Shown one piece after another: positions 1 to 28,683 of a stretch of 34,905 nt of DNA; position 1 is the stretch's first letter; every line of letters begins with the position of its first letter. The notes beneath the pieces are model-generated. The model saw only the letters and a list, made by a program, of their open reading frames with translations, searched no databases and was not told the DNA's origin. Both the position numbers and the translations under genes were made by a program. Origin of the DNA: an uncultured Clostridia bacterium (GTDB taxonomy: Bacteria; Bacillota; Clostridia; Oscillospirales; CAG-272); the NCBI GenBank assembly GCA_904502055.1, contig CAJGDZ010000002.1, positions 1-34,905 on the forward strand, read 5' to 3'.

Positions 1-145
1 GCCGCCGCGGCGGCTTCCCGTCTAAAATGACGTGAAGTTTAAGCGAACCCGTGCAGTGAGAGTTTAGGTCAAGCCTTTTTAAAGGCTTGCGCGGTCGAGG
101 CGCGAAGCCTCGTCGCCCGTCGCAACGGGCGAAACTCCCCGACAA
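1..145. other. GC-rich multi-hairpin structured element of unknown class, truncated by the window edge
   Basis: Palindrome GCCGCCG/CGGCGGC at 1-14. Three adjacent hairpins: AAGCCTTT/AAAGGCTT (71-88), CGAGGC-GCGAA-GCCTCG (96-112) and GCCCGT-CGCA-ACGGGC (115-130). They are bracketed by GAGAGTTT (58-65) pairing with AAACTCCC (132-139). No credible ORF; strand undetermined. Confidence 0.3.
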
Positions 146-173
146 ACTTCAATTTATTATCGTCGATTTTCTG

Positions 174-206
174 TGAAAATACGAGATTTTCAATATTTTT
201 TGTTTT
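174..206 (+). terminator. Possible plus-strand intrinsic terminator overlapping the 3' end of the convergent regulator gene
   Basis: TGAAAAT (174-180), loop ACGAG, ATTTTCA (186-192), then T-rich tract 196-206. The stem is AT-only, so it is weak. The half-sites match the 1042-1060 palindrome. Confidence 0.3.
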
Positions 207-1029
207 GCAGGGCGAATTCGGTGTTGGCGATGGCTTGCTTGGCGGTTTTGTCCGAGTTAAGGACGATGTAGGTATAGATGCTGTCAAAGATGGCGAGCTG
301 AGCGATGCGCGAGCTCATAGCGAGGATGGAGTGCTCGGTCTCGTCGGATTTGGTGAAGAGGGAAATGTCCGAGGCCTCCACGATGGGAGCCTCTCCGTAG
401 TTGGTGATGGCGACGGTGGTCGCACCGCAGATCTTACAAAGGCGCAGCGCCTCCACGATGTCTCTCGACGCGCCTGAATGTGAGATGCCTACGGCAACGC
501 TTCCGCGCCTCAGGTGCGAGGCGACGATAGCCTGCATATGGTTGTCGCACACGCTTTGCGCGCAAAGCCCAAGGCGCAGAAATTTGTGGGCGGCGTCCTG
601 CGCAATGGCGGCGGAATTGCCAAGGCCAAAAATGACGATGCGCTCCGAGCGCATAATGGCTTTGGCCGCCTTGTCCAGCGCCTCGGGATCAAGCACCGAT
701 TCGGTGGCGGTCAGCGAGCTTTGGATCTCGCGCATGCGCTTGCGGAAGATCTCAAGACAACTGTCCTCTCTTTGGATCTCGGCGCTGAGCGTGGAGGTGG
801 CGCTGAGCTCGGCCGCCAGGCGCAGCTTCATTTCCTGATAGCCCTCAAGCCCCAGACGGCGTGCAAAGCGCACAACCGTGGCGTCTCCGCAGCCGCAGGC
901 GCTTGCCAGCGTGGAGATGGAAAGCGGCAGGATCTCGCCTGTGTGCGAAAGAATGTAATCGGCTATTTTTTTCTCGGCAGGACCCATTGAATCCTGTAAA
1001 AAACGGATTTTGTGAACGATGGATTCCAT
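190..1029 (-). CDS. RpiR/MurR-family transcriptional regulator (HTH plus SIS phosphosugar-binding domain)
   Basis: ORF 190..1059. Preferred start is ATG 1029 (MESIVHKIRF), with GGAG about 8 nt upstream. AEKKIADYILSH...VVRFARRLGLEGYQEMK fits the RpiR HTH. IVIFGLGNSAAIAQDAAHKF...GISHSGASRDIVEAL fits a SIS domain. Divergent from the sugar operon. Confidence 0.85.
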   Translation of the reverse strand: MESIVHKIRFLQDSMGPAEKKIADYILSHTGEILPLSISTLASACGCGDATVVRFARRLGLEGYQEMKLRLAAELSATSTLSAEIQREDSCLEIFRKRMREIQSSLTATESVLDPEALDKAAKAIMRSERIVIFGLGNSAAIAQDAAHKFLRLGLCAQSVCDNHMQAIVASHLRRGSVAVGISHSGASRDIVEALRLCKICGATTVAITNYGEAPIVEASDISLFTKSDETEHSILAMSSRIAQLAIFDSIYTYIVLNSDKTAKQAIANTEFALQNKKY

Positions 1030-1041
1030 TTTGACGCTCCA

Positions 1042-1060
1042 AATGAAAATTATTTTCATT
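1042..1060. promoter_or_regulatory. Perfect 19-bp palindrome, candidate operator at the regulator gene's transcription start region
   Basis: AATGAAAAT-T-ATTTTCATT, 9-bp arms, read directly. It lies between the minus-strand -10 (1062-1067) and the regulator start codon (1029). Confidence 0.4.
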
Positions 1061-1061
1061 T

Positions 1062-1090
1062 ATTGTACTCTTTTTTTGGAATTTTGTCAA
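1062..1090 (-). promoter_or_regulatory. Sigma-A-type promoter for the RpiR-family gene
   Basis: On the minus strand: TTGACA (plus 1085-1090), 17-bp spacer, TACAAT (plus 1062-1067). Confidence 0.6.
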
Positions 1091-1091
1091 G

Positions 1092-1124
1092 ATTTCAAAA
1101 AAAAATTTCAACATTGCTTGAAAT
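1092..1124. promoter_or_regulatory. Three phased ATTTCAA/TTGAAAT half-sites overlapping the operon -35
   Basis: ATTTCAA at 1092-1098 and 1105-1111, inverted TTGAAAT at 1118-1124, spaced 13 bp. The last copy coincides with the -35 of the plus-strand promoter. Confidence 0.3.
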
Positions 1125-1146
1125 GTGCAGAGAGGTATGCTAAAAT
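1118..1146 (+). promoter_or_regulatory. Sigma-A-type promoter for the nine-gene catabolic operon
   Basis: TTGAAA (1118-1123), 17-bp spacer, TGC-TAAAAT extended -10 (1138-1146), about 40 nt upstream of ATG 1185. Confidence 0.55.
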
Positions 1147-1184
1147 AAATTTGAATTATTATAAAATCTTAGGAGGATTTTTTC

Positions 1185-2621
1185 ATGCAGGTCAAAATGA
1201 ACGATTTTTTGTTTTCGATGATCCTGACCGAGCTTGAGGACGCCGTGGGCGTTGAGAATTGCTCGGTTCGCTCCATCGACAAGGTAACGCATAGCGTAGA
1301 CTATTACTGGCTGTCCCGTATGTGGGCGGACAGAGGCTGCCGTATGCCCGAGGCGGACTTTATCGTTTGCCCCAAGGATGCAAGCGAGGTGTCCAAGGTG
1401 GTCAAGATCGCCAACTACTATAAGCTTCCCGTTACCACCTGGGGTGCCGGCGGCGGCACGCAGGGCGGTGCCATTCCCGTTTGCGGCGGTATTTTGCTTG
1501 ACACCAAGCGTATGAATCAGATCTATGAGGTCAACACCAAGGGTATGTATATCGAGTGCGGTACGGGCGCCATCTACAAGCACGTGGAGTGGGCGGCCAA
1601 CGAGGTAGGCAAGGCCACCATGCACTATCCCTCGTCGCTGACCTGCTCGACGGTGGGCGGCTTCCTTGCGCACAGAGGCATCGGTGTTTGCTCGACCAAG
1701 TACGGCAAGATCGATGATATGGTGCTTCAGATGGAGGTCGTGCTTCCGAACGGTGACATCATCACCACCTCGCCCGCGCCCAAGCACGCGGCAGGACCCG
1801 ATCTCAACCAGATCTTCATTGGCTCGGAGGGCACGCTGGGTATCATCACCAAGGCTCAGATGCGTATTTATGATATGCCCGAGGAGAGACGCTTCCGCGG
1901 CTTCCTTTTCCAGGATATGCACGGCGCGTTTGAGGCCAGCCGTGAGCTTCTGCAGAAGTTCAAGCCCTCGGTCATGCGTCTGTATGACGAGGCCGAGACC
2001 GCTTCGCTGATCAAGAAGATCGTCGGCGTGGAGCGCAAGGGCGCGTTTATGAACGTGGCGTTTGAGGGTTGCAAGGAAATGGTCGAGGTTGAGGAAAAGA
2101 TCCTGCTTTCCACCTTTGCCAAGTATGGAGCAGAGGACCTTGGCTCGGAGTACGGTGAGAAGTGGTGGAAGGAAAAGATCACCTTCTTCTATCCCGGTCA
2201 TATGATGGACATTCCGCAGATGTTCGGTACGATGGACACCATCGCGCCTTACGATAAGATCGAGGAGATCTACTGGGCAATGAAGAACGCCATCGAGACC
2301 AACTTCCCGCAGGCTAAGTTTATCGCGCATTTCTCGCACTGGTACGAGTGGGGGGCTATGCTTTACGACCGCTTCATTATTGAGGGCAAGGACGTGCCCG
2401 AAGACCCGGTGGAGGCCATGCGGCTTCACCAGGCCGTTTGGAGCTGCGGCGTCCGTGCGGCGCTGGCACACGGCGGCGTGGTCAACGATCACCACGGCGT
2501 CGGCATCAAGCTCGGCCGTCTTATGAAGGAGCAGTACGGTCCCGCGATGCAGGTGTTCGAGGGTCTCAAGAAGCAGCTTGACCCCAACGGCATTATGAAT
2601 CCCTTTAAGCTGGGACTTTAA
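1185..2621 (+). CDS. FAD-linked oxidase/dehydrogenase (GlcD / D-lactate dehydrogenase / alkyl-DHAP-synthase-like family)
   Basis: AGGAGG precedes ATG 1185. The FAD-binding half carries TTWGAGGGTQGGAIP and GPDLNQIFIGSEGTLGIITKA. The C-terminal half carries SHWYEWGAMLY and DHHGVG, typical of this family. Confidence 0.85.
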   Translation: MQVKMNDFLFSMILTELEDAVGVENCSVRSIDKVTHSVDYYWLSRMWADRGCRMPEADFIVCPKDASEVSKVVKIANYYKLPVTTWGAGGGTQGGAIPVCGGILLDTKRMNQIYEVNTKGMYIECGTGAIYKHVEWAANEVGKATMHYPSSLTCSTVGGFLAHRGIGVCSTKYGKIDDMVLQMEVVLPNGDIITTSPAPKHAAGPDLNQIFIGSEGTLGIITKAQMRIYDMPEERRFRGFLFQDMHGAFEASRELLQKFKPSVMRLYDEAETASLIKKIVGVERKGAFMNVAFEGCKEMVEVEEKILLSTFAKYGAEDLGSEYGEKWWKEKITFFYPGHMMDIPQMFGTMDTIAPYDKIEEIYWAMKNAIETNFPQAKFIAHFSHWYEWGAMLYDRFIIEGKDVPEDPVEAMRLHQAVWSCGVRAALAHGGVVNDHHGVGIKLGRLMKEQYGPAMQVFEGLKKQLDPNGIMNPFKLGL

Positions 2622-2637
2622 TCTTGGGAGGTAGAGA

Positions 2638-3726
2638 ATGATGAATATGTCTGAAAAATCCAAGGCACACGTTGACGCTTGCCGTTTTTGTTGGATGTGC
2701 CACCATATTTGCCCTATCGGCAACGCAACGGGTCACGAGAGAAGCACGCCCCGCGCCAGAGCACTTGGCATTTCGATGGTCAACCGCGGCGCGATCGAGC
2801 TTGAGGAAATTATGGATAACATTTACGAGTGCGGCGGCTGCGGCGGCTGTGTTCGCGAGTGTGTGACGGGCTGGGATCCCGTGATGTTCACCAAGGAGAC
2901 GCGCCTTGAGGCGGCTCTTGAGGATAAGCTTCCTTCCTACATAAATACAATGGTCGACAACTGCCTTGAGAGCGGCAACGCCTACGGCAAGACCGCGCTT
3001 TGCGCAAGGCTCGGCGAGGCCATCGAAAAGCACGCGGCTAAGACCGACACGCTTCTGTACCTCGGTGTGGATGCCAGATATATGGCGTGCGAGCAGGCGG
3101 TAAAGGCCATTGCGGTGCTGGAAAAGGCGGGCGTGGCGTTCACGGTGCTTGCGGATGAGCTGCCCACGGGCGCGCAGATTGACTTCCTCATCGGCGCGGC
3201 CGAGGAAACGAAGGAGCAGATGAGTGCGGCTGCTAAGGTGATGGATGGCTACAAGACGGTGATCTTTTACGATCCTGCCGATGCCAAGACCGTCAAGCAG
3301 ACCTATGGCGCTTACGGTGTGGAGACCGCGGCCAAGACCGTGACCTACACCTCGGTGCTTGCAGACCTTGTAAAGGCCGACAAACTTTCGGGCAAGGCGG
3401 CAAAGACGGTGGTATATCAGGATCCCTTCCAGCTCTCGCGCGACCTTGAGGAGACCGAGGAGGCAAGAGAGGTTATCAAGGCGTTTGCGACGCTTCACGA
3501 GCTGCACCTCAATCGCGCCGAGACCGTTTGGGCAGGCAACATTCTGATGGCGCAATATATCCCCGACGTTATGAAAAAGGTGGCACAGCGCCGTCTCTTT
3601 AACGTAAAGTCGATCGGTGAGAAGGCCATTGTGACCGCGTCGGTTTCGGAGTACGTATCGCTGAAGAGCGTGGAGCAGAACGAGATTGAGGTTCTGTCTC
3701 TGGAAGACCTTATTTTGGGAGAATAA
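2638..3726 (+). CDS. Fe-S cluster-binding protein, GlcF/LutA-like architecture with a cysteine-depleted C-terminal half
   Basis: GGGAGG precedes ATG 2638. Two ferredoxin-type motifs: CRFCWMCHHICP and CGGCGGCVREC. The remaining ~270 aa resemble CCG-domain partner subunits in layout but contain no CC(G) motif. Confidence 0.7.
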   Translation: MMNMSEKSKAHVDACRFCWMCHHICPIGNATGHERSTPRARALGISMVNRGAIELEEIMDNIYECGGCGGCVRECVTGWDPVMFTKETRLEAALEDKLPSYINTMVDNCLESGNAYGKTALCARLGEAIEKHAAKTDTLLYLGVDARYMACEQAVKAIAVLEKAGVAFTVLADELPTGAQIDFLIGAAEETKEQMSAAAKVMDGYKTVIFYDPADAKTVKQTYGAYGVETAAKTVTYTSVLADLVKADKLSGKAAKTVVYQDPFQLSRDLEETEEAREVIKAFATLHELHLNRAETVWAGNILMAQYIPDVMKKVAQRRLFNVKSIGEKAIVTASVSEYVSLKSVEQNEIEVLSLEDLILGE

Positions 3727-3728
3727 AT

Positions 3729-4568
3729 ATGCTGGTAACGTTACAGGAAATTTTGGATCTGGCGGAGAAGGGCGGCTTTTGCATTCCCGCGTTTAACGTT
3801 TACAATATGGAATCGGTGATCGGCGTGCTTCACGCCGCCGAGGAGGAGCGCGCCCCCATCATTATGCAGGTGTATCCGAGACTGATGAAGGAGGAGACGG
3901 GATACTTCCTCTCGCCCACCATTCTGGCGGCGGCGCACAGGGCCACCGTTCCCGTTTGCTTCCATCTGGATCACGGTCCATCGGAGCTGGAGACCACACG
4001 CTCCCTGCGCTACGGGGCCACGGGCATTATGCTGGACGGCTCGACGCTCCCCTTTGAGGAAAACATTGCCTTGACAAGAAGAGTGGTGGAGACCTGCGCC
4101 CATCTGAACGTTCAGGTGGAGGGCGAGCTGGGTCACGTCGGCACCACAAAGGACGAAGAGACCGACGAGTTTACAACGCCCGAGGACGCGAGGGTGTTTG
4201 TTGAAAAAACGGGTGTGGCTTGTCTTGCTGTGGCGGTCGGCACGGCACACGGAAGATATAAAAAGCCGCCCAAGCTGGACATTGAGAGGATCAAGGCCAT
4301 CCGCGCCGCCACAAACGGCATAGCTCTTGTGCTTCACGGTGGCTCGGGTGTACCCGACGAGGAGATCCGAAAGGCGGTGGCCGCAGGCATTCGCAAGATG
4401 AATTTTGCGACCGACGTTTGCTATACCTTCTTAGATACCTGTCTTGCGGAGCTTCAGAAGCCCGACCGTGCCATTGCCATTGATACGTTTATGAAAAAGC
4501 CGATCGAGGCCGTAGCGGAATTCTGCAAGACGAGAATTCGCCTTGTGGGTGCCGACGGAAGGGTGTAA
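3729..4568 (+). CDS. Class II (metal-dependent) ketose-bisphosphate aldolase family protein (FbaA/GatY/KbaY/IolJ-like)
   Basis: Motifs FNVYNMESVIGVLHAAEEERAPIIMQV, CFHLDHG and ALVLHGGSG. Starts 2 nt after the preceding stop. Confidence 0.85.
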   Translation: MLVTLQEILDLAEKGGFCIPAFNVYNMESVIGVLHAAEEERAPIIMQVYPRLMKEETGYFLSPTILAAAHRATVPVCFHLDHGPSELETTRSLRYGATGIMLDGSTLPFEENIALTRRVVETCAHLNVQVEGELGHVGTTKDEETDEFTTPEDARVFVEKTGVACLAVAVGTAHGRYKKPPKLDIERIKAIRAATNGIALVLHGGSGVPDEEIRKAVAAGIRKMNFATDVCYTFLDTCLAELQKPDRAIAIDTFMKKPIEAVAEFCKTRIRLVGADGRV

Positions 4569-4569
4569 T

Positions 4570-5481
4570 ATGAGTAAGATCGTTGGAATCGGTGCCTGTG
4601 TGTTTGACACACTCTACACCATGCCCACCTATCCGATCGAGGACACCAAGATGCGCGCGCTTTCCAGCAAGAATGCGGGCGGCGGACCCGTGGCCACGGG
4701 TCTTGTGGCCGCAAGCAAGCTGGGGGCATCGGCATCGTATATCGGCGTGCTTTCGGACGATAGCGGCGGAAAGTATCTCAAGGCTGATTTTGAAAAATAC
4801 GGCGTGGACACCTCGCTTGTCTGTGTGGAATCGGGCTACCGTTCGTTTGCCTCGGTGCTTTGGCTTTGTGCCGACACGGCAACGCGTACCTGCGTGTTCG
4901 ACAAGGGCAATCTTCCGGCGCTCGTGCTGAACGCCGAGCAAAGATCCGCCGTTCGTGAGGCCGACATTCTGATGGTGGACGGCAACGAAATGGAGGCGGC
5001 GCTGGAGGCGGCGCGTATCGCGCGCGCGAGCGGCACCAAGGTGCTTTACGATTGCGGCGGACTTTACGCGGACGTGGAAAAGCTTCTGGCACTTACCGAC
5101 ATTATGATCCCCTCGGAGGAGTTTGCGCTGGCGCACACGGGTTGTTCCGATGCCGAGAGTGCCGCAAGGGCACTTTATGCACGCTATTCTCCCGACTTTG
5201 TGGTGATCACGCAGGGAAAGCGGGGCGGAATTTTGTTTGACGGCAAAGGTGTGACCGCGTATCCTATTTTTCCCGCTAACGTGGTAGACTCCAACGGCTC
5301 GGGCGACGTGTTCCACGGTGCGTTTGCCGCAGGCTTGGTGCGCGGTTTTGATCCGTCCAAATGCTGCCATTTTGCCAGTGCGGTATCGGCACTTAAATGT
5401 ATGGGCGTGGGCGCGCGTGAGAGCGTGCCGAGCTTTGATACGGCCGTGAGATTTATGAAGGAGAACGGATATGAGCTATAA
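4570..5481 (+). CDS. PfkB-family carbohydrate kinase
   Basis: ATG 4570 lies 1 nt after the aldolase stop (MSKIVGIGACVFD). GGGPVATG near the N-terminus. VVDSNGSGDVFHGAFAAG matches PfkB signature 2. Confidence 0.85.
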   Translation: MSKIVGIGACVFDTLYTMPTYPIEDTKMRALSSKNAGGGPVATGLVAASKLGASASYIGVLSDDSGGKYLKADFEKYGVDTSLVCVESGYRSFASVLWLCADTATRTCVFDKGNLPALVLNAEQRSAVREADILMVDGNEMEAALEAARIARASGTKVLYDCGGLYADVEKLLALTDIMIPSEEFALAHTGCSDAESAARALYARYSPDFVVITQGKRGGILFDGKGVTAYPIFPANVVDSNGSGDVFHGAFAAGLVRGFDPSKCCHFASAVSALKCMGVGARESVPSFDTAVRFMKENGYEL

Positions 5482-6265
5482 CTATAAAAAATCCTATAAG
5501 AGCGCAAAGGGCTATACGCCGCTTTGCAAGATCGGCGAGTGCTCCTTGAAGAAGCTGGAGTTCGGTATCATCGAGCTGGACGGCGGCGAGAGCCTGGACT
5601 TCTACACCGCCGATAAGGAAACGGCTTTTATTATGTTGAAGGGACATTGCAACGTCCTTGTGAACGGGGAAAAGTGGGAGAACGTCGGCAACCGCCAGAG
5701 CGTGTTTGAAAATCGAAGAGCCGAGAGCTTCTATATGCCCATCGAGCAAAACCTGACCGTTGAGGCCATCGACGCCATCAAGATCGCGGTCTGCGCAACG
5801 CCGATCACCGAAAAGACAGAGCCGCAGCTGCTCAGAGCCGACCGCGTGCCCCTCAAAATGCTGGGCAGAGTGCCTTTCCAGAGAGAGACCAGCTTTCTCA
5901 TTGACGGCACCACCAACGCCAAGGTGCTCACCATCGGTGAGGGCTACTGCACCGAGGGTAACTGGGCAGGCTTCCCGCCGCACAAGCACGACGAGGACAA
6001 TATGCCCACCGAGTGCATCGCGGAGGAGATATACTATTTCCTCTTTGACCCCGAGCAGGGCTTTGGCGTGCAGTGTATGTATACCGAGGACGGCTCGCTT
6101 GACGAGGCGTATCGCGTCAAGAGCGACGACCTTGTGGAGTTCCCCTACGGCTATCACACTACGGTTTCCACGCCCGGCTACCAGAGCTATTTTCTGTGGT
6201 TGATGGCCGGTGACTATCAGGGCTTTAATCGCAAGAACGATCCCGATCACGATTGGGTGAAATAA
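5471..6265 (+). CDS. iolB: 5-deoxy-glucuronate isomerase-like protein (KduI/IolB family, IolB type)
   Basis: GNWAGFPPHKHDEDNMPTECIAEEIYYFLFDPEQGFGVQCMYTEDGSLDE closely parallels the B. subtilis IolB core as I recall it (GNWSSYPPHKHDQDN...EETYYH...DPGQGF). About 264 aa, as expected. Overlaps the kinase gene by 11 nt. Confidence 0.8.
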   Translation: MSYNYKKSYKSAKGYTPLCKIGECSLKKLEFGIIELDGGESLDFYTADKETAFIMLKGHCNVLVNGEKWENVGNRQSVFENRRAESFYMPIEQNLTVEAIDAIKIAVCATPITEKTEPQLLRADRVPLKMLGRVPFQRETSFLIDGTTNAKVLTIGEGYCTEGNWAGFPPHKHDEDNMPTECIAEEIYYFLFDPEQGFGVQCMYTEDGSLDEAYRVKSDDLVEFPYGYHTTVSTPGYQSYFLWLMAGDYQGFNRKNDPDHDWVK

Positions 6266-6299
6266 GCGGGAATTTGATTTTTTGGATCAAGGAGAGAGT

Positions 6300-7772
6300 A
6301 TGAAATATTTACTCGGTATTGATTTCGGAGGCGGTTCCACCAAGGCTACCTTGCTGAGTACACAGGGGCAGATCGTCTCCGAACATACGGTGGAGTACCC
6401 CACCTACCATCCCGAAAACGGCGCGTGCGAGCAGTCGCCCGGCGACTGGCTGGCGGCGCTTTGTCAAAACGTTTCCGCTCTGCTTGCAAGGAGCGGCGCT
6501 TTGGCGTCGGACATTCTCGGCGTGGCGATCGACTCGGCCACGCACACCTTCCTTGTGTGTGATGAAAATTTCAGGCCGCTTCGCAATGCCATCCATTGGA
6601 CGGACAGCCGAAGCGTGAAGGAGTCCGCGTTTCTCAGGGAGCAGCACGGCGAGGAGATCTTTGAAAAGACCTTCCACAAGCCCGACACCATCTGGACGCT
6701 TCCGCAGCTTTTGTGGCTGAAGCGGAGCGAGTCGGACGTGTTTGATCGGGTGCGCTACATCTTCTTTGAGAAGGACTACATCCGTTATTTTCTGACGGGG
6801 GTGTACTGTACCGACTATATTGAGGCAGAGGGAAGTATGCTTTTCGACTGCCGCGAGATGAAGTGGGACGAGTCGCTCTGCGCGCTGGCTTCGATTCGCG
6901 TGGATATGCTTCCGCCGCTCAGAAAGCCGACCGACGTTATCGGCGCGGTGACAAGGGAGGCGGCCGAGAAGACCGGCCTTGCGGAGGGCACACCCGTCAT
7001 TTGCGGCACGACCGACACCGCCATGGAGGTGTTTGCCTCGGGCGCGGTGGAGAAGGGTGACATTACCGTCAAGCTGGCGACGGCGGGGCGCATCTGCATC
7101 ATTTCGGACAGGGCCTATCCCGACCGTCACATCATCAACTATTCGCATATCGTGGACGGCCTTTGGTATCCGGGCACGGCAACCAAGGCGGCGGCCTCCT
7201 CGTACCGCTACTATCGCGATACCTTCGGCGGTGACTACCGCACGCTGGACGAGGAAGCGGCGGCGGTTTCCGTCGGCGCGGGGGGACTTATTTTCCATCC
7301 GTATATCAACGGTGAGCTGACGCCGTACGCCGATCCCGCACTTTGCGGAAGCTTTACCGGTGTGCGCGCCACGCATACGCGCGGACACTTTACGCGCGCG
7401 GTGCTGGAGGGCGTTTCGCTGTCTCTTTTGGATTGCAAGACGTATTTTGACGGCTTAGGTGTTTCGCACAAGCCCGTCGCCACGCTGATCGGCGGCGGTG
7501 CCAAGGGTGAGCTTTGGCGGCAGATCACGGCGGACGTGCTGGGTATGACGCTTCGCGTGATGGAAAACTCCGATTCCTCGCTGGGCTCGGCGATGCTGGC
7601 AGGTGTGGCACTCGGCGTTTTTGAGAACCCGAAGCAGGCGGTGGCGCTTTGCACACGCGAGAAGAGCGTGACAAAGCCCAATCCCGAGAACACCAAAGCG
7701 TATCGCGAGATTTTTGAAAAGTACAAAAAGATCAAGGAGTGTCTCACTCCGATCTATCACACAGAAGTATGA
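6300..7772 (+). CDS. FGGY-family carbohydrate kinase (xylulokinase/glycerol kinase-like)
   Basis: AAGGAGAGAG precedes ATG 6300. LLGIDFGGGSTKATL is the actin-fold phosphate-1 motif. TLIGGGAKGELWRQI lies near the C-terminus. About 490 aa. Confidence 0.85.
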   Translation: MKYLLGIDFGGGSTKATLLSTQGQIVSEHTVEYPTYHPENGACEQSPGDWLAALCQNVSALLARSGALASDILGVAIDSATHTFLVCDENFRPLRNAIHWTDSRSVKESAFLREQHGEEIFEKTFHKPDTIWTLPQLLWLKRSESDVFDRVRYIFFEKDYIRYFLTGVYCTDYIEAEGSMLFDCREMKWDESLCALASIRVDMLPPLRKPTDVIGAVTREAAEKTGLAEGTPVICGTTDTAMEVFASGAVEKGDITVKLATAGRICIISDRAYPDRHIINYSHIVDGLWYPGTATKAAASSYRYYRDTFGGDYRTLDEEAAAVSVGAGGLIFHPYINGELTPYADPALCGSFTGVRATHTRGHFTRAVLEGVSLSLLDCKTYFDGLGVSHKPVATLIGGGAKGELWRQITADVLGMTLRVMENSDSSLGSAMLAGVALGVFENPKQAVALCTREKSVTKPNPENTKAYREIFEKYKKIKECLTPIYHTEV

Positions 7773-9142
7773 AGATCGTTGTGTGTATAAGACAGGGGCT
7801 TGACGGCGAGCTGGGGCCATTTGACGCATCGGCATACGAGGCGGCGCTCTCGGTGGAAAACGCCGAGGTCACGCTTTTGACCATGGCTTCCGCGGCCTCT
7901 CTGGATTTTCTGAGAGGGCTTACGCGCCTTGGTGCCGGGCGCGCCATTCTGTTGTCGGACAAGGCGTTTGCGGGGGCGGACACGCTGGCAACGGCGTATG
8001 CGCTTAGCCGTGCAATTCGGCGGCTTTCGCCCGATTATGTGTTTTGCGGCAGACAGACGCTCATTGGCGACACCGCGCAAACGCCGCCTATGCTGGCAGA
8101 AATGCTGGGCTTTGATTTTATCACCGAGGCGATGACCGTTCGCAGTACCCTCGGGGAGGGGCTGGTCTGTACGTCGCGCCGCGGCGAGAGATGTGCGGCA
8201 CCGGGAACGCTGATCGCGCTTGAGCGGAGCTACACGCTTCGTCTTCCGCGCCTTCGCTCCAAGACCGCAGAGCCCGAGATTTGGAGCGCGGCAGACGTGA
8301 CGGCCGATCCGCAAAAATGCGGGCTTGTCGGCTCACCGACGCGCGTTCTGGCCAGCTTTGAAAACCAATCGGGCAAGCGCAAATGTACCTTTGTGCGCCG
8401 CGAGGAGCTGGCGGACGTGATATCCCGTGCGCTGACGGCACAGCGGCAAAAGGCCGCGCCGACCGACGAGATGTCACGGGAAAGGCTGGGAAAGGTTCTC
8501 TCGGTCGGAGAAGCACCGCGCGGCTTTGCCGAGGCGGTGAGTGACAACGTCATAGAGGTCGCACCCACCGATGCCGATACGCTTGCCGGGTGCATTCTTG
8601 CACAGGATTCCGACGCGGTGATATGGGGGAGCGATGCGCGTTCCAAAGAGCTGGCGGCACGCGTGGCCGCGCGGCTTTCGCTTGGGCTTTGTGCCGACTG
8701 TACCCACCTTGCGGTGGAGGAGGGAGCGCTTGCGATGTACCGCCCTGCGCTGTCGGGAAGCGTGATTGCCAAGATCAAGAGCCTGACACGGCCGTCCATG
8801 GCAACCGTTCGCACCGAAAAGGGCGACGTGGGGGACGTGATCGTGGCGGCCGGCTTTGGTGTGAGGGAGCAGCTGGATCGTGTGAAGGAATTTGCCGACT
8901 CGCTCGGCGCCACGCTTTGCGCCTCGCGCAAGCTTGTGGACGGCGGCTTTGCCCCATACGAGCGGCAGGTGGGACTTACCGGCAGCCGTGTGGCACCGCC
9001 GGTCTACGTGGCCGTCGGCATTTCGGGCGCAGTTCATCACATTGTGGGAATGGAGCGCTCGGGCGTGGTCATTGCCATCAATCCCGACAAAAACGCGCCC
9101 ATTTTTGAATATGCAGATTACGGTATCGTGGATACCTTTTGA
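7769..9142 (+). CDS. Single-polypeptide electron transfer flavoprotein: EtfB-like N-terminal part fused to a shortened EtfA-like part
   Basis: ATG 7769 overlaps the kinase stop (ATGA). N-terminal MKIVVCIRQ...LSDKAFAGADTLATAYALSRAI...GRQTLIGDTAQTPPMLAEMLG...GLVGSPTRV is EtfB-like. C-terminal ARVAARLSLGLCADC...RPALSGSVIAKI...MATVR...YVAVGISGAVHHIVGM...VVIAINPDKNAPIFEYADYGIV is EtfA-like and FAD-binding. Confidence 0.8.
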   Translation: MKIVVCIRQGLDGELGPFDASAYEAALSVENAEVTLLTMASAASLDFLRGLTRLGAGRAILLSDKAFAGADTLATAYALSRAIRRLSPDYVFCGRQTLIGDTAQTPPMLAEMLGFDFITEAMTVRSTLGEGLVCTSRRGERCAAPGTLIALERSYTLRLPRLRSKTAEPEIWSAADVTADPQKCGLVGSPTRVLASFENQSGKRKCTFVRREELADVISRALTAQRQKAAPTDEMSRERLGKVLSVGEAPRGFAEAVSDNVIEVAPTDADTLAGCILAQDSDAVIWGSDARSKELAARVAARLSLGLCADCTHLAVEEGALAMYRPALSGSVIAKIKSLTRPSMATVRTEKGDVGDVIVAAGFGVREQLDRVKEFADSLGATLCASRKLVDGGFAPYERQVGLTGSRVAPPVYVAVGISGAVHHIVGMERSGVVIAINPDKNAPIFEYADYGIVDTF

Positions 9143-9156
9143 AAAGGAGAAAAGCT

Positions 9157-10557
9157 ATGCTGAATTATGAGGTTAAAATCGGACTTGTGGCTATGCGCCG
9201 CAATGCCACAGACCGCCCGCGCGGCACGTTTCTTACCTGGTACTCCGCCGAGCAGAGAGGAGAGCGCTTCGTTAAGTACATCGAGGAGAATTTTGCCACC
9301 GACAAGGTCAGCTTTGTGGACAACAAGGGCATTGGCATTCGCGACCTTGTGTTTGACGACAAGAGCGCGGCCGAGGTCATCGAGCGCTTCAAGACCGAGA
9401 AGGTCGATGCGGTGATGATCATCAACTGCAACTTCGGCAACGAGGAGGCGGCGGCAGACATTGCCAAGGCACTCGGAAAGCCCGTGCTTCTGTGGGCACC
9501 GCTTGACGATGAGTATTACGTGGACGGTATGCGCCCGACCGACTCGCAGTGCGGTCTGTTCGGCGTTTCCCGTCAGTTCCAGAGATATCACATCCCGTTC
9601 TCGCATCTGCCTTGCTGCCGCGTGGAGTCGGATGAGTTCCGTGAGGGCTTTGAGCGCTTTGTGAGGGTGGCCTGTATGGTCAAGAATTTCACGGGACTCC
9701 GCATCGGTCAGATCGGCTCGCGTCCTACGCCCTTTTTCTCGGTCATCTGGAACGAGGGAGATCTGATGGAGCAGTTCGGCATTCGCATCGTCGCGCTCAA
9801 CTTCGCGATGGTTGAGCAGAGAATGAAGGCCGCGCCCGAGCTGTATGCCGACGAGATCGCCGAGTACGAGAAGTACTTTACCTATAATTATAAATCGGAC
9901 GAGCTGACGCCCAAGTATATAAGGCCGATGGCCACGCTGGCGGCGGTGTATAAGCATCTGTTTGATGAATTTGATCTGGATGTGATCTCCGCCGAGTGCT
10001 GGACGGCAACGCCTCTTATGTTTGACGGCCTTGCGCCCTGTGCGGTCTACGGACTTCTCAATGATCTTGGGTATATGGTCTCCTGCGAGAGCGATATGCA
10101 CTGCGCGATGACCATGGCGCTTCTGAAGTGTGCTACCTTAGGCGAGGGCAAGCCGCTCTTTGGCGAGTTTACTGTCCGTCATCCCGAAAACAAGAACGCC
10201 GAGCTTCTTTGGCATTGCGGTCCGTTCCCGCTTTCTGAAAAAGCACCCGACAGCACGGCGCGTCTGGTCAACCAGCGTGAGTGGTTCCGTGCCAAGGATG
10301 GGGAGTACACGGTGGCGCGTATCGACCGCGAGACGGGCGGACGCTACGTCATTCTTCCGCTGACCTGCAAGACAACGGAAGGACCGCAGACCCACGGCAC
10401 GTATATCTGGGGTGAGTTTGAGGATCTTCAGGCGGTTGAGGACAAGCTGATCGACGGCCCGTACATTCACCATTTCGTCGAAATGGCGGGAGATTACACC
10501 GGGGAGCTCCGGGAGTTCTGCAAGTATTTCCCCAATTTGCACGTAGACATGGTCTAA
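9157..10557 (+). CDS. L-fucose/L-arabinose isomerase-family protein (FucI-like aldose-ketose isomerase)
   Basis: AAAGGAGA precedes ATG 9157. About 466 aa. KIGLVAMR...VDAVMIINCNFGNEEAAADIAKALGKPVLLWAP matches my recollection of this family (COG2407). Needs HMM confirmation. Confidence 0.6.
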   Translation: MLNYEVKIGLVAMRRNATDRPRGTFLTWYSAEQRGERFVKYIEENFATDKVSFVDNKGIGIRDLVFDDKSAAEVIERFKTEKVDAVMIINCNFGNEEAAADIAKALGKPVLLWAPLDDEYYVDGMRPTDSQCGLFGVSRQFQRYHIPFSHLPCCRVESDEFREGFERFVRVACMVKNFTGLRIGQIGSRPTPFFSVIWNEGDLMEQFGIRIVALNFAMVEQRMKAAPELYADEIAEYEKYFTYNYKSDELTPKYIRPMATLAAVYKHLFDEFDLDVISAECWTATPLMFDGLAPCAVYGLLNDLGYMVSCESDMHCAMTMALLKCATLGEGKPLFGEFTVRHPENKNAELLWHCGPFPLSEKAPDSTARLVNQREWFRAKDGEYTVARIDRETGGRYVILPLTCKTTEGPQTHGTYIWGEFEDLQAVEDKLIDGPYIHHFVEMAGDYTGELREFCKYFPNLHVDMV

Positions 10558-10591
10558 ATAAGAATGACAGGCGGTGGTTTTGGGCAAATTA

Positions 10592-10620
10592 TTGACAAAA
10601 GCCACCGCTTGTGGTACAAT
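10592..10620 (+). promoter_or_regulatory. Near-consensus sigma-A promoter for the transporter gene
   Basis: TTGACA (10592-10597), 17-bp spacer, TGG-TACAAT (10612-10620). Confidence 0.65.
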
Positions 10621-10654
10621 GGAGCCGTTATTTTTGGTATTTGGGGATATAGAA

Positions 10655-11623
10655 ATGAATTTGTTTGCACCGATCTTAAATCAAATGATCTTCCTGTTTG
10701 CCTTTATCGTGATCGGCTTTGTCCTGGCGCGCGGAAATTTTGTTCCCGAAAATTCTGCGGCAGTGCTTTCCAAGTTGGAGAGCTTTGTGTTTGTGCCGGC
10801 GCTGGTGATGGGCACCTTCATCAAAAACTGCAACGTGGACGTGCTGGATACCATGTGGAAGATCCTTGTATTGGGAGGCGGCAGCGTGCTGGTTTGCATC
10901 CTGCTTGCCATTCCGCTCTCAAAGCTTTGCTTTAAGGAAGCCTATCTTCGCAAAATGGCGACCTACGGCCTTGCCTTTTCCAACTTTGGTTTTATGGGAA
11001 ACGCCATCGTGCTCGGCGTGTTCGGCGAGGCGATGTTCTTTGAGTACACCGTGTTCACGCTGCCTTTCTGGGCGGCGATCTACGCCTGGGGCGCGCCCGT
11101 GCTTCTCATTGCCGGGGCCTCGGGTGACGAGAGAAAAATTCCGCTTGGCGAGAGGCTGAAGTCCTTTATAAATCCCATGCTGATCGGTATGGTGATCGGA
11201 CTTGTGATCGGCCTTTCGGGGCTGAAGCTTCCGGGAGCGGTCATCTCGGTGATCGACGTGGCAGGTGACTGTATGTCGCCTGTGGCCATGCTTCTGACGG
11301 GTATGACCATCGGACGCCTGGACGTTTTGGCACTGTTGCGAAAGGGAAGACTGTACCTGACAACGGCGGTAAAGCTTTTGATCTATCCGTTGGTCTTTTT
11401 CGGTATCTTCTTGCTTTTGCCCAAAAATTCCTTCTTTACCGACACCTTTTTCAAGTGCGCTATGTGTGTGGCGTCGATGCCCATGGGTCTTAACACCATC
11501 GTCATTCCGGCGGCGTACGGTAAGGATACCACCGATGCGGCGGGTCTGGCGCTGGTTTCGCACGTGCTGTCCATTCTCACCATTCCACTGGCCTTTATGC
11601 TGCTTCAGAAATTTATCCTATAA
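10655..11623 (+). CDS. AEC (auxin efflux carrier) family membrane transporter
   Basis: Preferred ATG 10655 (MNLFAPILNQMIFLF), with GGGGA 7 nt upstream. About 322 aa, hydrophobic throughout with roughly ten segments. The ORF-track N-terminal extension is rejected. Confidence 0.7.
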   Translation: MNLFAPILNQMIFLFAFIVIGFVLARGNFVPENSAAVLSKLESFVFVPALVMGTFIKNCNVDVLDTMWKILVLGGGSVLVCILLAIPLSKLCFKEAYLRKMATYGLAFSNFGFMGNAIVLGVFGEAMFFEYTVFTLPFWAAIYAWGAPVLLIAGASGDERKIPLGERLKSFINPMLIGMVIGLVIGLSGLKLPGAVISVIDVAGDCMSPVAMLLTGMTIGRLDVLALLRKGRLYLTTAVKLLIYPLVFFGIFLLLPKNSFFTDTFFKCAMCVASMPMGLNTIVIPAAYGKDTTDAAGLALVSHVLSILTIPLAFMLLQKFIL

Positions 11624-11627
11624 AGCG

Positions 11628-11660
11628 AAAAGAGCTGAGTCGTTGACTCAGCTCTTTTTG
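11628..11660. terminator. Bidirectional intrinsic terminator between convergent genes
   Basis: AAAGAGCTGAGTC-GTT-GACTCAGCTCTTT flanked by an A-run and a T-run. The 3' arm contains the stop and last codons of the minus-strand hydrolase. Confidence 0.75.
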
Positions 11661-13126
11661 ACACCACCGGTAAAGCCGTGGTAATCCTTTAAGAAGAATT
11701 GCGCGTTTTTGTGCATAGAGAGCGCAAGCGCATCCCCCTTGAAGGCAAGCGTTATTGTTAGATTTCCCACGGAATTGTCGATGATGTTGCATCGGATCGC
11801 GAATGTTGTATCTTCTACCCATGCACCGCTGTTAACGGTGCGGAATTCCCGTCCCGACGGTTCTCCGAGAACATCGCCATAAAAGTGGGTTTCGGGAAAG
11901 GTGGAGAGAAGGTTTTTGCCGATGCCGAACCGGATTTTCTTCTCGCCTCGCGCGTTTTGATAGGTGAATGTTCCTTCGTCCCCGGCAAGGGAAAGCGAGA
12001 GCTCGTCAATCCCCATCGCATTGTTCTCCATGCGGTAGATCACGCCGCTGATTCTCTCAGCAAGAGGAGAGGCGGACTTACCCACAACGCTGGGAAGCGT
12101 AAGATTTTGACAGCGGGCGAGCAGATTTGGATAGATATTCGGGTCGCTGTCCGTTTCGGTATCGAGTTTTTCGATGATCTCCGTCCAAAGCCTATGAAAG
12201 ATCAGCGCTTTGCTGTCGCTTCGCCCTTGTGTGTCGGCGGTGCAGACAAATACAAGATTCTTGTCGGGAAGACAGACTGAGATTTGACCGCCGGCTCCCA
12301 ACATACAGAACGCATTGTCACGAAGAATCCAAAATTGATAACCGTAGCCGCATCGCCAAGGCTCATTTGCCCCTTCGGGGTTGTTGTTGACCTGCTTGGC
12401 GGTGGCTTCCCTCAGGTATTTCTCGGAAATCAGCCGTTTTCCGTTCCATACGCCGCCATTCAGTAAAAACTGGGAGAATTTGGCGAAGTCACGCGTGCTC
12501 AGAAGAAGGGCGGAGCCTGCCCACGCTTCGCGGTCGGGACCGAGAAGACAACGGGATTCTTTGGAAACTTCAAGCTCGCAGAGGATCTCCTCGCGCAGAA
12601 ATTCGTAGAAATATTTTCCCGTGATTCGCCGAACGATCGCACCAAGAACATAGGTGCCACAGCTGTCATAGTTGAAGATCGTACCTGCGGGGTGGTCGGG
12701 TTGCGTGTGGAAATAGGACGCTAGCCAGTTCTTTCCCCGGATATCGGGGTCTCCGTAGGTCGATTGGCTGAAGGGAGTAGTCATTCGGAGAAGGTCGCGC
12801 ACCGTCGTTTCCTTCACATACGGGTGTGTAGCTTCGCTTACGAGATCGGGGAAAAATTTCACGATCTTATCGTGGAGTGAGAGCTGTCCTCGATCGATCA
12901 GAAGTCCGATGGCAATCGAAACAAAGGATTTGGTGGCGGAATACAGGCGATGTGTCTCATCTTGACGGTTGGGCGCCCAGTAAGCTTCAAGAGCAACCTT
13001 TCCGTATCGGAGGATCATACAGCTGTGAAACGGAAGTCCGCTTTCTTCCAAGGCGTCTAAAAGACGGTTGATGCTTTTGGCGGAAATTCCGACCTCGTTT
13101 GGATTTACGGAAATAAAGTCCTTCAT
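11648..13126 (-). CDS. Beta-lactamase-fold serine hydrolase (class C/PBP-like) with an extra C-terminal domain; no signal peptide
   Basis: SxxK nucleophile motif in RLYSATKSFVSIAIG. 492 aa. The N-terminus is hydrophilic. The start overlaps the upstream gene's stop (ATGA at 13123-13126). Confidence 0.75.
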   Translation of the reverse strand: MKDFISVNPNEVGISAKSINRLLDALEESGLPFHSCMILRYGKVALEAYWAPNRQDETHRLYSATKSFVSIAIGLLIDRGQLSLHDKIVKFFPDLVSEATHPYVKETTVRDLLRMTTPFSQSTYGDPDIRGKNWLASYFHTQPDHPAGTIFNYDSCGTYVLGAIVRRITGKYFYEFLREEILCELEVSKESRCLLGPDREAWAGSALLLSTRDFAKFSQFLLNGGVWNGKRLISEKYLREATAKQVNNNPEGANEPWRCGYGYQFWILRDNAFCMLGAGGQISVCLPDKNLVFVCTADTQGRSDSKALIFHRLWTEIIEKLDTETDSDPNIYPNLLARCQNLTLPSVVGKSASPLAERISGVIYRMENNAMGIDELSLSLAGDEGTFTYQNARGEKKIRFGIGKNLLSTFPETHFYGDVLGEPSGREFRTVNSGAWVEDTTFAIRCNIIDNSVGNLTITLAFKGDALALSMHKNAQFFLKDYHGFTGGVKKS

Positions 13127-28631: not shown

Positions 28632-28683
28632 TTTACCGTAAAATACGAATTTGCGCAAGGATTGTGCAGGGAAAGGAATGCGA

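Follow-up and report, generated by a model that had tools for sequence, protein, structure and literature searches.

An FGGY kinase that appears to travel with an alkyl-DHAP-synthase-like flavoprotein, an iron-sulfur protein and a fused electron-transferring flavoprotein in a sugar-catabolic cassette of uncultured Clostridia

Introduction

Several described systems share building blocks with the operon considered in this work, which lies in a 34,905-nucleotide (nt) stretch of DNA from an uncultured Clostridia bacterium (Oscillospirales; CAG-272); the whole stretch, hereafter the window, spans the entire contig CAJGDZ010000002.1 of assembly GCA_904502055.1. In the lower half of inositol catabolism the isomerase IolB, acting on an aldose with an anionic tail, the PfkB-type 1-kinase IolC and the class II aldolase IolJ lead to dihydroxyacetone phosphate (DHAP). 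The sulfoglycolytic Embden-Meyerhof-Parnas routes (sulfo-EMP and sulfo-EMP2; YihS/SqvD, SqvB, YihV/SqiK, YihT/SqiA) employ a FucI-superfamily isomerase, a DUF4867 helper, a YihV-like PfkB kinase and a PF01116 aldolase, and YihV carries the sulfonate triad Lys27-Asn109-Arg138 (PMC8006165). A FucI-superfamily isomerase, a DUF4867 protein and a XylB-like FGGY kinase form a triad in the clostridial xylose operon, which continues with a transketolase and a transaldolase-like enzyme and whose xylB gene is essential for growth of C. saccharobutylicum on xylose (PMC6158908); DUF4867-FGGY fusions, together with a large unassigned 'aldose/ketose' DUF4867 group adjoining FucI-family and FGGY genes, have been described in the sulfoglycolysis papers on DUF4867. 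Among redox enzymes, the lactate dehydrogenase LctBCD (Ldh-EtfAB; 7qh2), known for ferredoxin confurcation (PMC9232219), joins a flavoprotein of the VAO/GlcD superfamily to EtfB, EtfA and [4Fe-4S] relay clusters, and alkyl-DHAP synthase (ADPS/AGPS; 2uuu, 4bby) is a redox-neutral enzyme of lipid context, without electron partner, whose substrate is a 1-O-substituted DHAP bearing a leaving group (PMC3509576).

The operon of the window overlaps with each of these systems and coincides with none. It encodes the three families of IolB-IolC-IolJ and, in addition, an FGGY kinase and a redox module without counterpart in the Iol pathway. The four sulfo-EMP families are found in its relatives, although neither a DUF4867 nor a mutarotase gene was detected anywhere in the window. 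Compared by family, not by sequence, the related cassettes also hold the triad of the clostridial xylose operon, accompanied by aldolase, PfkB kinase, IolB-like isomerase and redox module where the xylose operon has its transketolase and transaldolase-like genes. Finally, the window operon shares flavoprotein, EtfB, EtfA and [4Fe-4S] clusters with LctBCD, but has neither lactate permease nor racemase. An earlier note on this DNA, made from the sequence alone, had read the operon as two isomerase-kinase pairs with one class II aldolase and a module of flavoprotein, iron-sulfur (Fe-S) protein and electron-transferring flavoprotein (ETF). Here, we report that this combination is present as described, and that the FGGY kinase appears to be evolutionarily paired with the redox module and not with the FucI-type isomerase.

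Results

The FGGY kinase follows the redox module across related loci

Species-representative genomes were searched with the ETF, the flavoenzyme and a planctomycete ETF orthologue, which retrieved 119 distinct related loci. Since the same gene set is syntenic across these loci, its arrangement is far beyond chance, and the neighbourhood and co-occurrence analysis that the earlier note had called for thus revealed a real, co-inherited catabolic set. That the nine-gene set constitutes one functional cassette is much more certain than the ordered pathway model discussed below. Presence percentages hereafter refer to the 85 loci containing both flavoenzyme and ETF. The Fe-S protein and the FGGY kinase are found in 100% of them, and the aldolase, the PfkB kinase and the IolB-like isomerase in 98% each. 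The FucI-like isomerase, placed at either operon end, occurs in 69%, DUF4867 in 65%, an aldose 1-epimerase (mutarotase) in 35%, a NagA/NagB-like pair in 13-14% and an AEC transporter inside the operon in 12%; genes resembling phosphomannose isomerase (PMI) or ARMT1 are occasional. An RpiR regulator adjoins 59% of the cassettes and an AraC-type regulator 20%.

The FGGY gene adjoins the ETF gene in 72 of the 85 loci, and the FucI-like isomerase is absent from 31% of the cassettes that retain the kinase. Reduced loci are instructive in the same respect: one consists of ETF, FAD subunit, Fe-S subunit and FGGY kinase only (L180), and another has lost the aldolase and the PfkB kinase (L135). This distribution indicates that the FGGY kinase tracks the flavin/Fe-S/ETF module, not the FucI-like isomerase, and suggests an invariant core made of the kinase and a putative three-protein dehydrogenase (FAD subunit, 2x[4Fe-4S] subunit and fused EtfB-EtfA). 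From this co-inheritance it can be argued that the flavoenzyme acts on the phosphorylated product of the kinase, within one pathway; it also speaks against the previous proposal of an ETF-coupled dehydrogenase handling a hydroxy-acid cleavage product of two converging branches.

Out-group flavoenzymes (53% and ~40% identity), recovered by an exhaustive representative search, lie in otherwise different operons in which a triad of flavoenzyme, Fe-S/CCG partner and FGGY kinase recurs (L251/L252/L253, L255, L256/L257 and the P0311 contig). The 53%-identity enzyme, on the P0311 contig, belongs to an operon next to a LacI regulator that runs FGGY kinase, FAD subunit, a 372-amino-acid (aa) protein, MFS transporter, KduI, PfkB kinase, FucI-like isomerase and aldolase, without ETF; the 372-aa protein occupying the Fe-S position gave no Pfam match. 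The gene of its 40%-identity counterpart is flanked by those of an FGGY kinase and of an Fe-S homologue whose cysteine motifs have decayed, in an operon that also includes an inositol-1-phosphate-synthase-like gene, a PfkB kinase, two GFO_IDH_MocA genes, a SIS gene and an ABC transporter. Two further gene orders were seen, namely CCG, FAD, Fer4+CCG, FGGY, FGGY and FAD, CCG ... FGGY. These operons suggest that the recurring unit is the kinase plus an ADPS-like flavoprotein plus an Fe-S partner, the ETF being one possible electron acceptor.

A more remote likeness was found in Escherichia coli K-12, where the ygcNOPQRSUW-yqcE-ygcE cluster (L258, NC_000913.3 2892657-2903374) brings together in one locus the ADPS-like YgcU (29% identical, 2e-56), the FGGY kinase YgcE (25%), the ETF pair YgcR/YgcQ (local 33%) and two sugar-type transporters. 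It differs in having an ETF of two separate subunits and a FixCX-like Fe-S partner (YgcN/YgcO), and in lacking class II aldolase, PfkB kinase, IolB-like and FucI-like isomerases; identities are low and these are uncharacterised y-genes. The ygc cluster could serve as a tractable model for this flavoenzyme class.

The flavoenzyme has an ADPS-like active site

The best solved relatives of the flavoenzyme are the ADPS structures 2uuu (4e-41) and 4bby (6e-38), with which it has the VAO-type FAD domain and the cap in common; mouse D-lactate dehydrogenase (D-LDH) 8jdc (4e-35), LctD (7qh2) and glycolate oxidase (1e-28) rank lower. Catalysis by ADPS depends on Arg419/Arg352, Tyr578/Tyr508 and His616-His617 (review PMC3509576; mutant entries). 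In the window protein R265, Y394 and H436-H437 align with Arg419, Tyr578 and His616-His617 (guinea-pig numbering), His615 being replaced by Asp, and this Arg/Tyr/His-His set is invariant in relatives of the flavoenzyme down to 35% identity. The N-terminal extension of ADPS is missing, as residue 56 of the query aligns with residue 137 of 2uuu and residue 206 of 4bby. Unlike ADPS, the flavoenzyme belongs to a sugar operon and not to a lipid context, and net electron transfer is implied by the constant presence of an Fe-S gene, and the usual presence of an ETF gene, beside its own.

The flavoenzyme had been taken for a GlcD-like protein of the lactate dehydrogenase type. GlcD is its top NCBIfam match, at 184.8 bits against an equivalog cutoff of 567.9, but in the alignment to mouse LDHD (8jdc) the His/His/Glu metal ligands of D-LDH read His/Trp/His, so that only the first His of the metal site, which is also that of LctD, is retained. 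With two of the three ligands lost, identity as a lactate or glycolate dehydrogenase was rejected, and the previous assignment gives way to an ADPS-like active site.

The iron-sulfur subunit and the fused ETF

The Fe-S protein resembles partners of the GlpC/GlcF type and has weak NCBIfam matches to the CCG-type partners TfrB, LdhH, DsrK and GlpC; its position is occupied in distant relatives by true CCG-domain proteins or by a homologue with decayed Cys motifs. The fused EtfB-EtfA form is shared by >120 protein clusters of ~455-465 aa with 58-78% identity, for which the NCBI name, where given, is only 'FAD-binding protein'. Its AlphaFold2 model (pLDDT 84, pTM 0.80) matched in Foldseek both EtfB chains (LctB, TMt 0.69) and EtfA chains, from bifurcating as well as non-bifurcating ETFs, and the two halves are closest to bifurcating ETFs, LctBC included. 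Compared with typical EtfA sequences, EtfA domain I seems shortened in its first part, and so does the EtfA helix at the C terminus. Whereas LctC fuses a [4Fe-4S] domain to EtfA, the window encodes a separate 362-aa Fe-S protein with two clusters and an EtfB-EtfA fusion without N-terminal ferredoxin domain; the separate 2x[4Fe-4S] protein could take over the role of the ferredoxin domain of LctC. A further fused ETF of 41% identity (L019), encoded beside an RpiR regulator in surroundings that share no other gene with the cassette, was set aside as uninformative.

Kinases, isomerases and aldolase fall outside characterised pathways

The PfkB kinase has E. coli sulfofructose kinase YihV (7ag6; 2.7e-36) as its closest solved relative, ahead of ribokinase (~1e-22) and the putative IolC 2qcv (2e-16). 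Its second-best NCBIfam match, the IolC model TIGR04382, gives 99.9 bits (cutoff 300), and the hexose-kinase subfamily TIGR03168 gives 42.9 (cutoff 216). The sulfonate triad of YihV reads K27/D111/N139, with only the in-trans Lys retained. Across 101 aligned sequences (window and orthologues) no variation was seen at D13, K27, R106, D137, N139 and D246, and 100 of them have a basic residue (K or R) at position 112. The invariant Arg106 and the basic residue 112 are candidates for binding an anionic tail which, together with Lys27, they would fit; the protein is probably a ketose 1-kinase with a pocket for such a tail.

The kinship with YihV brings in a sulfo-EMP-like route, in which a 6-sulfonated or 6-O-sulfated gluco-sugar (sulfoquinovose, 6-sulfo-GlcNAc/glucose) would pass through isomerase, 1-kinase and aldolase to give DHAP and a sulfo-C3 aldehyde, the latter then being salvaged: it would be isomerised, phosphorylated by the FGGY kinase and, as a DHAP analogue, stripped of its sulfo group through ADPS-type flavin-N5 chemistry. 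The leaving group on the 1-O-substituted DHAP used by ADPS agrees with this scheme, as do the NagA/NagB-like genes of some cassettes, the sulfatase adjoining the P0311 cassette and a DUF4838 protein in a Thermoguttaceae cassette, a family reportedly (title of PMC10570127) of 6-sulfo-GlcNAcases. Likewise, SftI (sulfoquinovose isomerase) is the sole family match of the FucI-like isomerase, and DUF4867 (SftX/SqvB) and class II aldolases are parts of sulfo-EMP2 (PMC9594981, PMC11968277). Nevertheless, the SftI match, nearly full length, reaches 95 bits against a cutoff of 700, and the YihV triad is lost (R138 replaced by an invariant N, N109 by D). Neither a sulfoquinovosidase nor a sulfolactaldehyde (SLA) reductase or dehydrogenase nor a sulfonate/sulfite exporter was found in the scanned window or conserved in the flanks of its relatives, and the lone neighbouring GH31 glycoside hydrolase scores 156 bits as alpha-xylosidase and 74 bits as YihQ type. 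In addition, DUF4867-FGGY fusions suggest a kinase acting on a ring-forming ketose and not on a C3 fragment, a rumen sulfoquinovose study did not report this cluster, and, within the accessible part of the published sequence similarity network table (PMC11968277), the only DUF4867 entry with this neighbourhood appears unclustered, outside the sulfoglycolysis cluster. Given the YihV triad, the SftI score and the lack of YihQ, SLA enzymes and exporter, membership in the sulfoquinovose pathway proper was rejected, and we regard the wider sulfo-EMP-like route as quite improbable.

The IolB-like isomerase, swapped in some cassettes for a paralogue of ~38-40% identity, scores 219.2 bits with the 5-deoxy-glucuronate isomerase model TIGR04378, barely above the cutoff of 205. 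Every other enzyme of the cassette misses its NCBIfam equivalog cutoffs, in line with the earlier statement that the operon matches no characterised pathway. The aldolase exceeds the cutoff of the ketose-bisphosphate aldolase subfamily TIGR00167 (243.7 against 215.6 bits) and remains below the equivalog cutoffs for fructose-bisphosphate aldolase (FBA) and GatY/KbaY (GatY subfamily, 234.8 against 383; TIGR01858, 213.5 against 443.6); KbaY, AgaY, FBA and YdjI are among its solved relatives. A tagatose/galactitol/GalNAc pathway was discarded, given that the equivalogs for tagatose-bisphosphate aldolase and tagatose-6-phosphate kinase are not reached. The FGGY kinase, with xylulokinases 5vm1 and 2itm as best solved relatives, falls just short of the XylB model TIGR01312 (379.3 bits, cutoff 380.25) and far from FucK (132.6 against 470.9) and ribulokinase (143 against 428). 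As for the FucI-like isomerase, no Pfam match was obtained at E<=1e-3, PF02952 included, and it matches L-arabinose isomerase 7cwv weakly; the earlier label of FucI-type isomerase therefore holds at superfamily level, remotely, for a protein that is optional in the cassette. L-fucose and L-arabinose entry pathways (FucI-FucK-FucA, AraA-AraB-AraD) were rejected, since the isomerase and kinase equivalogs are missed and the aldolase belongs to PF01116 and not to the FucA/AraD fold.

These scores allow the gene names to be taken at face value and weighed as such: a lower inositol pathway (IolB, IolC, IolJ) on 5-deoxy-glucuronate supplied by an upper pathway not seen here, a fucose/arabinose-type entry pair and a confurcating lactate/glycolate dehydrogenase acting on the hydroxy acid formed at the end. 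The IolB score, the rank of IolC among the matches of the PfkB kinase, the GlcD top match of the flavoenzyme and the nearness of the ETF halves to bifurcating ETFs would all agree, and the IolG and IolE families (GFO_IDH_MocA and AP_endonuc_2) are each present in 3 of 127 flank-family representatives. However, the IolC and GlcD scores lie far below their cutoffs, and the PfkB kinase is no IolC orthologue; two D-LDH metal ligands are not conserved; the FucI and FucK matches fail as above and a FucA-type aldolase is absent; and there is no aldehyde dehydrogenase present to make a hydroxy acid. As the earlier note had pointed out for the window, IolG, IolE, IolD and IolA are missing from its scanned open reading frames (ORFs), and none of them is conserved, or co-inherited with the cassette, in the flanks of the 119 loci. 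Such a literal assignment is, in our view, very improbable.

The convergence of two substrates or branches on one aldolase, also put forward previously, deserves more attention. One branch would lead from xylose to xylulose-5-phosphate (FucI-like isomerase, DUF4867, mutarotase, XylB-like kinase) and the other, acidic one from glucuronate or 4-O-methyl-glucuronate, by way of the IolB-like isomerase, the PfkB 1-kinase and the class II aldolase, to DHAP and a C3 acid semialdehyde, with flavin/Fe-S/ETF processing the ether group or the C3 acid product; xylan-derived aldouronates would feed both. The near-threshold XylB score and the requirement of solventogenic clostridia for an operon of xylB, DUF4867 and 'L-fucose isomerase' to grow on xylose (PMC6158908) argue for the first branch. 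For the second, the IolB model is reached and the natural IolB substrate is a gluco-configured uronate, PfkB kinases paired with class II aldolases work on keto-uronates in the Iol pathway, and the AEC transporter inside 12% of cassettes is of anion type. The E. coli YdjH/YdjI couple is another pair of PfkB kinase and class II aldolase on keto-uronates. Carriers are, moreover, mostly herbivore-gut bacteria, and one relative (L122) has a GH3 and an alpha-xylosidase-like GH31 gene upstream. Against this scheme stands the co-inheritance described above: the FGGY kinase accompanies the redox module in every locus, the FucI-like isomerase is often missing, and distant operons keep the triad of FGGY kinase, flavoenzyme and Fe-S protein without any isomerase. 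Neither alpha-glucuronidase nor xylanase enrichment was seen in the flanks, the NagA/NagB-like inserts are left unexplained, and we see no chemically convincing role for an ADPS-like enzyme on 4-O-methyl-glucuronate or tartronate semialdehyde. All in all, two converging branches seem unlikely.

Spread, carriers and accessory genes of the cassette

Each genome places the cassette in essentially its own surroundings: the 367 ORFs of the flanks fall into 294 families, and among the 127 family representatives surveyed with Pfam neither carbohydrate-active enzymes nor transporters were enriched. The complete cassette also occurs in one Planctomycetia and one Bacilli metagenome-assembled genome (MAG), and in Thermoguttaceae it is present with no ETF nearby. 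Because its flanks are unrelated between genomes and it reaches Planctomycetia and Bacilli, the cassette seems to act as a mobile unit, and gene neighbourhoods point to a self-contained, horizontally spread catabolic unit. Relatives of the flavoenzyme turned up in no fewer than 581 stretches of contigs from species-representative genomes, and a single protein cluster at 90% identity comprises 2,944 member sequences. The flavoenzyme is 82-96% identical in 110 loci from Clostridia, Bacilli and Planctomycetota, compared with median identities of 54-78% for the remaining cassette proteins, which go down to ~40-55% in the most distant carriers; in planctomycete locus L169 the cassette neighbours of the flavoenzyme are only 40-55% identical to those of the window. 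This pattern suggests unusually strong constraint on the flavoenzyme, repeated lateral transfer, or both. The 90%-identity flavoenzyme cluster of P0001 also lists 264-aa members named '5-deoxy-glucuronate isomerase', probably a clustering artefact, as both genes share one cassette.

Accessory genes vary between lineages. NagA/NagB-like inserts are found in ~15 loci (e.g. L151, L085, L183, L185, L189) beside the FGGY and ETF genes, mostly between them; NagA/NagB-like and PMI-like enzymes all convert C2 variants of an aldose phosphate into a 2-ketose phosphate. In L122 a block at 152-7495, directly upstream of the AraC regulator of the cassette, comprises GH3, alpha-xylosidase-like GH31, GFO_IDH_MocA, NAD-epimerase-like, quinone-oxidoreductase-like and EamA genes, and an extra FAD_oxidored gene is located between PfkB and IolB. 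A GH67N+DUF4838 glycosidase-like gene lies inside the Thermoguttaceae cassette (L161/L162, 16380-18770), and the sulfatase gene of the P0311 contig directly adjoins its cassette. The DUF4838 gene, the sulfatase and the NagA/NagB inserts are a hint that certain lineages may use amino- or sulfated sugars.

Organisation of the locus and neighbouring genes

All ten genes of the locus were found in their broad families by Pfam and NCBIfam (Table 1). The tight packing noted earlier for nine co-oriented genes between 1185 and 10557, with gaps of at most 34 nt or overlaps, was corroborated, the junctions being, in gene order, +16, +2, +1, -11, +16 to +34, -4 and -4 to +14 nt. So was the ATGA overlap at 7769-7772, in which the FGGY stop TGA (7770-7772) shares bases with the ETF start ATG (7769-7771), an arrangement that predicts translational coupling of the two genes in the window. 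The opposed RpiR/SIS regulator, the promoter ahead of the operon and the separately promoted AEC gene behind it were recovered as well, the two promoters as promoter-like sites; the AEC start in the program-made list of open reading frames (GTG 10574) is probably too early, ATG 10656 being the more likely one. Terminator-like matches within the operon are at chance level (14 found, 13.9 expected from shuffled sequence). An Rfam scan of positions 1-12000 gave nothing credible, the operon leader thus offering no Rfam element and hence no riboswitch clue to a ligand, and the RpiR regulator is below every NCBIfam equivalog cutoff. Relatives of the cassette are transcribed in two gut metatranscriptomes, whose contigs cover the genes; among those listed all are short and none crosses a gene junction of the relatives' cassette.

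Table 1. Coordinates of the operon, its regulator, the adjacent transporter gene and the promoter-like sites in the window.
Feature	Position	Strand	Evidence and remarks
RpiR/MurR-family regulator, HTH_6 + SIS phosphosugar-binding domain	190-1059	-	Divergent from operon; Pfam HTH_6 5e-22, SIS 6e-20
Operon promoter-like site, TTGAAA-17-TAAAAT with extended TG	1118-1146	+	Consensus scan, 10/12 matches; precedes first gene
FAD subunit, alkyl-DHAP-synthase-like flavoprotein (putative dehydrogenase)	1185-2621	+	Pfam FAD_binding_4 + FAD-oxidase_C
Fe-S subunit, 2x[4Fe-4S], degenerate CCG-type C-terminal part	2638-3726	+	Two CxxCxxCxxxCP motifs; Pfam Fer4_8/Fer4_17
Class II (metal-dependent) ketose-bisphosphate-type aldolase	3729-4568	+	PF01116 2e-86
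PfkB-family sugar kinase	4570-5481	+	Pfam/NCBIfam; solved relative YihV 7ag6
KduI/IolB-family aldose-ketose isomerase	5471-6265	+	PF04962 2e-69
FGGY kinase, xylulokinase-like	6282 (or likely start ATG 6300)-7772	+	TIGR01312 XylB 379.3 bits
Fused EtfB-EtfA, single chain, 457 aa	7769-9142	+	Pfam ETF (two stretches) + ETF_alpha
Remote FucI/AraA-superfamily aldose isomerase, 472 aa	9139 (or likely start ATG 9157)-10557	+	NCBIfam SftI 95 bits
AEC promoter-like site, TTGACA-17-TACAAT	10592-10620	+	Consensus scan; ahead of AEC start 10656
AEC-family (Mem_trans) transporter	ATG 10656-11623	+	PF03547 2e-29

The first 130 bases of the window (1-190 region), 3' of the regulator stop codon, carry GC-rich inverted repeats, e.g. 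aagccttttt/aaaggcttg and gcgaagcctcgtcgcccgtcgcaacgggcgaaac. Beyond the AEC gene and convergent with it, a 492-aa beta-lactamase-fold serine hydrolase (11648-13126, minus strand) overlaps by 4 nt with a 640-aa right-handed beta-helix protein (13123-15045, minus strand); the two could be a glycan-modifying pair, and relatives showed no connection between them and the cassette. Three tandem paralogues of ~500-513 aa with N-terminal signal/lipobox-like sequences (28651-30192, 30485-31996 and 32309-33811) are lipoprotein-like, the one scanned gave no Pfam match, and they may form an enlarged group of atypical solute-binding proteins. The rest of the window, in which genes for the beta-lactamase-fold hydrolase, the beta-helix protein, EamA, an esterase, HAD, AraC, MntP and the solute-binding-like lipoproteins were recognised, is unrelated to the cassette and gave no substrate hint.

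Discussion

Gene content, synteny, family assignments, conserved catalytic residues and co-inheritance were read directly from the genomes, and from them we infer a substrate, an order of steps and a direction of electron flow. As substrate of the cassette, an aldose of gluco or xylo configuration, the corresponding alditol or a close derivative of these is most likely. Tentatively, and at somewhat less than an even chance, we propose that the flavoenzyme oxidises the phosphorylated product of the FGGY kinase, before isomerase, second kinase and aldolase complete the pathway. The xylulokinase-like FGGY kinase would phosphorylate the distal primary hydroxyl of a ketose or polyol; free aldoses would first be converted by the optional FucI-like isomerase, assisted in relatives by DUF4867 and mutarotase, and amino- or epimeric forms could be channelled into the same ketose phosphate by the NagA/NagB-like and PMI-like enzymes, which are likewise optional. 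The flavoenzyme might then oxidise the phosphorylated intermediate at a position adjacent to a carbonyl or carbinol carbon, its electrons passing to the Fe-S subunit and on to the ETF, possibly with ferredoxin confurcation, because the redox couple is proposed to be too positive to reduce NAD+ directly. The IolB-like isomerase would turn the oxidised product into a 2-ketose with an anionic tail, the YihV/IolC-like PfkB kinase would phosphorylate its C1, and the class II aldolase would release DHAP and a second phosphorylated fragment.

There is precedent for making a phosphate ester first and oxidising it next by a flavoprotein whose acceptor is not NAD+, as when glycerol kinase precedes glycerol-3-phosphate dehydrogenase, or erythritol kinase a flavoprotein dehydrogenase of its own. 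By analogy, the logic of the cassette would resemble glycerol-3-phosphate or lactate oxidation in quinone-free anaerobes, LctBCD likewise having to cope with an oxidation too positive for NAD+.

Several observations weigh against this ordered pathway. If fructose-6-phosphate or xylulose-5-phosphate were the central intermediate, the flavoenzyme and the IolB-like step would have no obvious role; the model therefore demands an unusual intermediate that needs both. The FGGY kinases of the distant triads are only ~25% identical to that of the window, so the kinase substrate may differ between operons, and ETF-less cassettes exist (the Thermoguttaceae loci and the P0311 contig), which makes of the ETF an adaptable acceptor. 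ADPS itself carries out no net redox reaction. The ADPS residues conserved in the flavoenzyme serve in ADPS to deprotonate the carbon adjoining the DHAP carbonyl, and they hint at carbanion or N5-adduct chemistry on a ketone and not at plain hydride transfer from an alcohol; Arg447 of the Dictyostelium ADPS, on the other hand, aligns with Pro337 of the window protein and is thus not conserved. Furthermore, the carriers found are all uncultured MAGs recovered from gut, rumen or manure.

It is tempting to speculate on the chemistry to which these residues point. The flavoenzyme would in that case use covalent flavin-N5 (carbanion) chemistry to oxidise or strip an ether, sulfo, phosphate or hydroxyl group next to the keto group of a ketose phosphate, Fe-S protein and ETF handling the electrons. 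We hold this doubtful, yet if it were true the cassette would represent a new enzyme reaction and a new sugar or polyol catabolic route widespread in gut anaerobes and distantly echoed by the ygc genes.

Targeted literature searches for the gene combination found no published description of the cassette, and the accessible part of the supplementary table of PMC11968277 contains one unremarked row with this neighbourhood. The cassette is therefore best regarded as an undescribed sugar-catabolic operon variant, whose notable part is an orphan, ultra-conserved ADPS-like flavoenzyme tied to an Fe-S protein and a fused ETF. It is common in gut and rumen bacteria of ruminants, pigs and humans. Were the substrate identified, ETF-dependent energy metabolism of anaerobes would gain a new partner class and a fused architecture, and abundant uncultured Oscillospirales a dietary or host sugar niche. 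A large branch of VAO/ADPS flavoenzymes, so far orphan, would acquire a function, and the long-orphan ygc cluster of E. coli a testable hypothesis.

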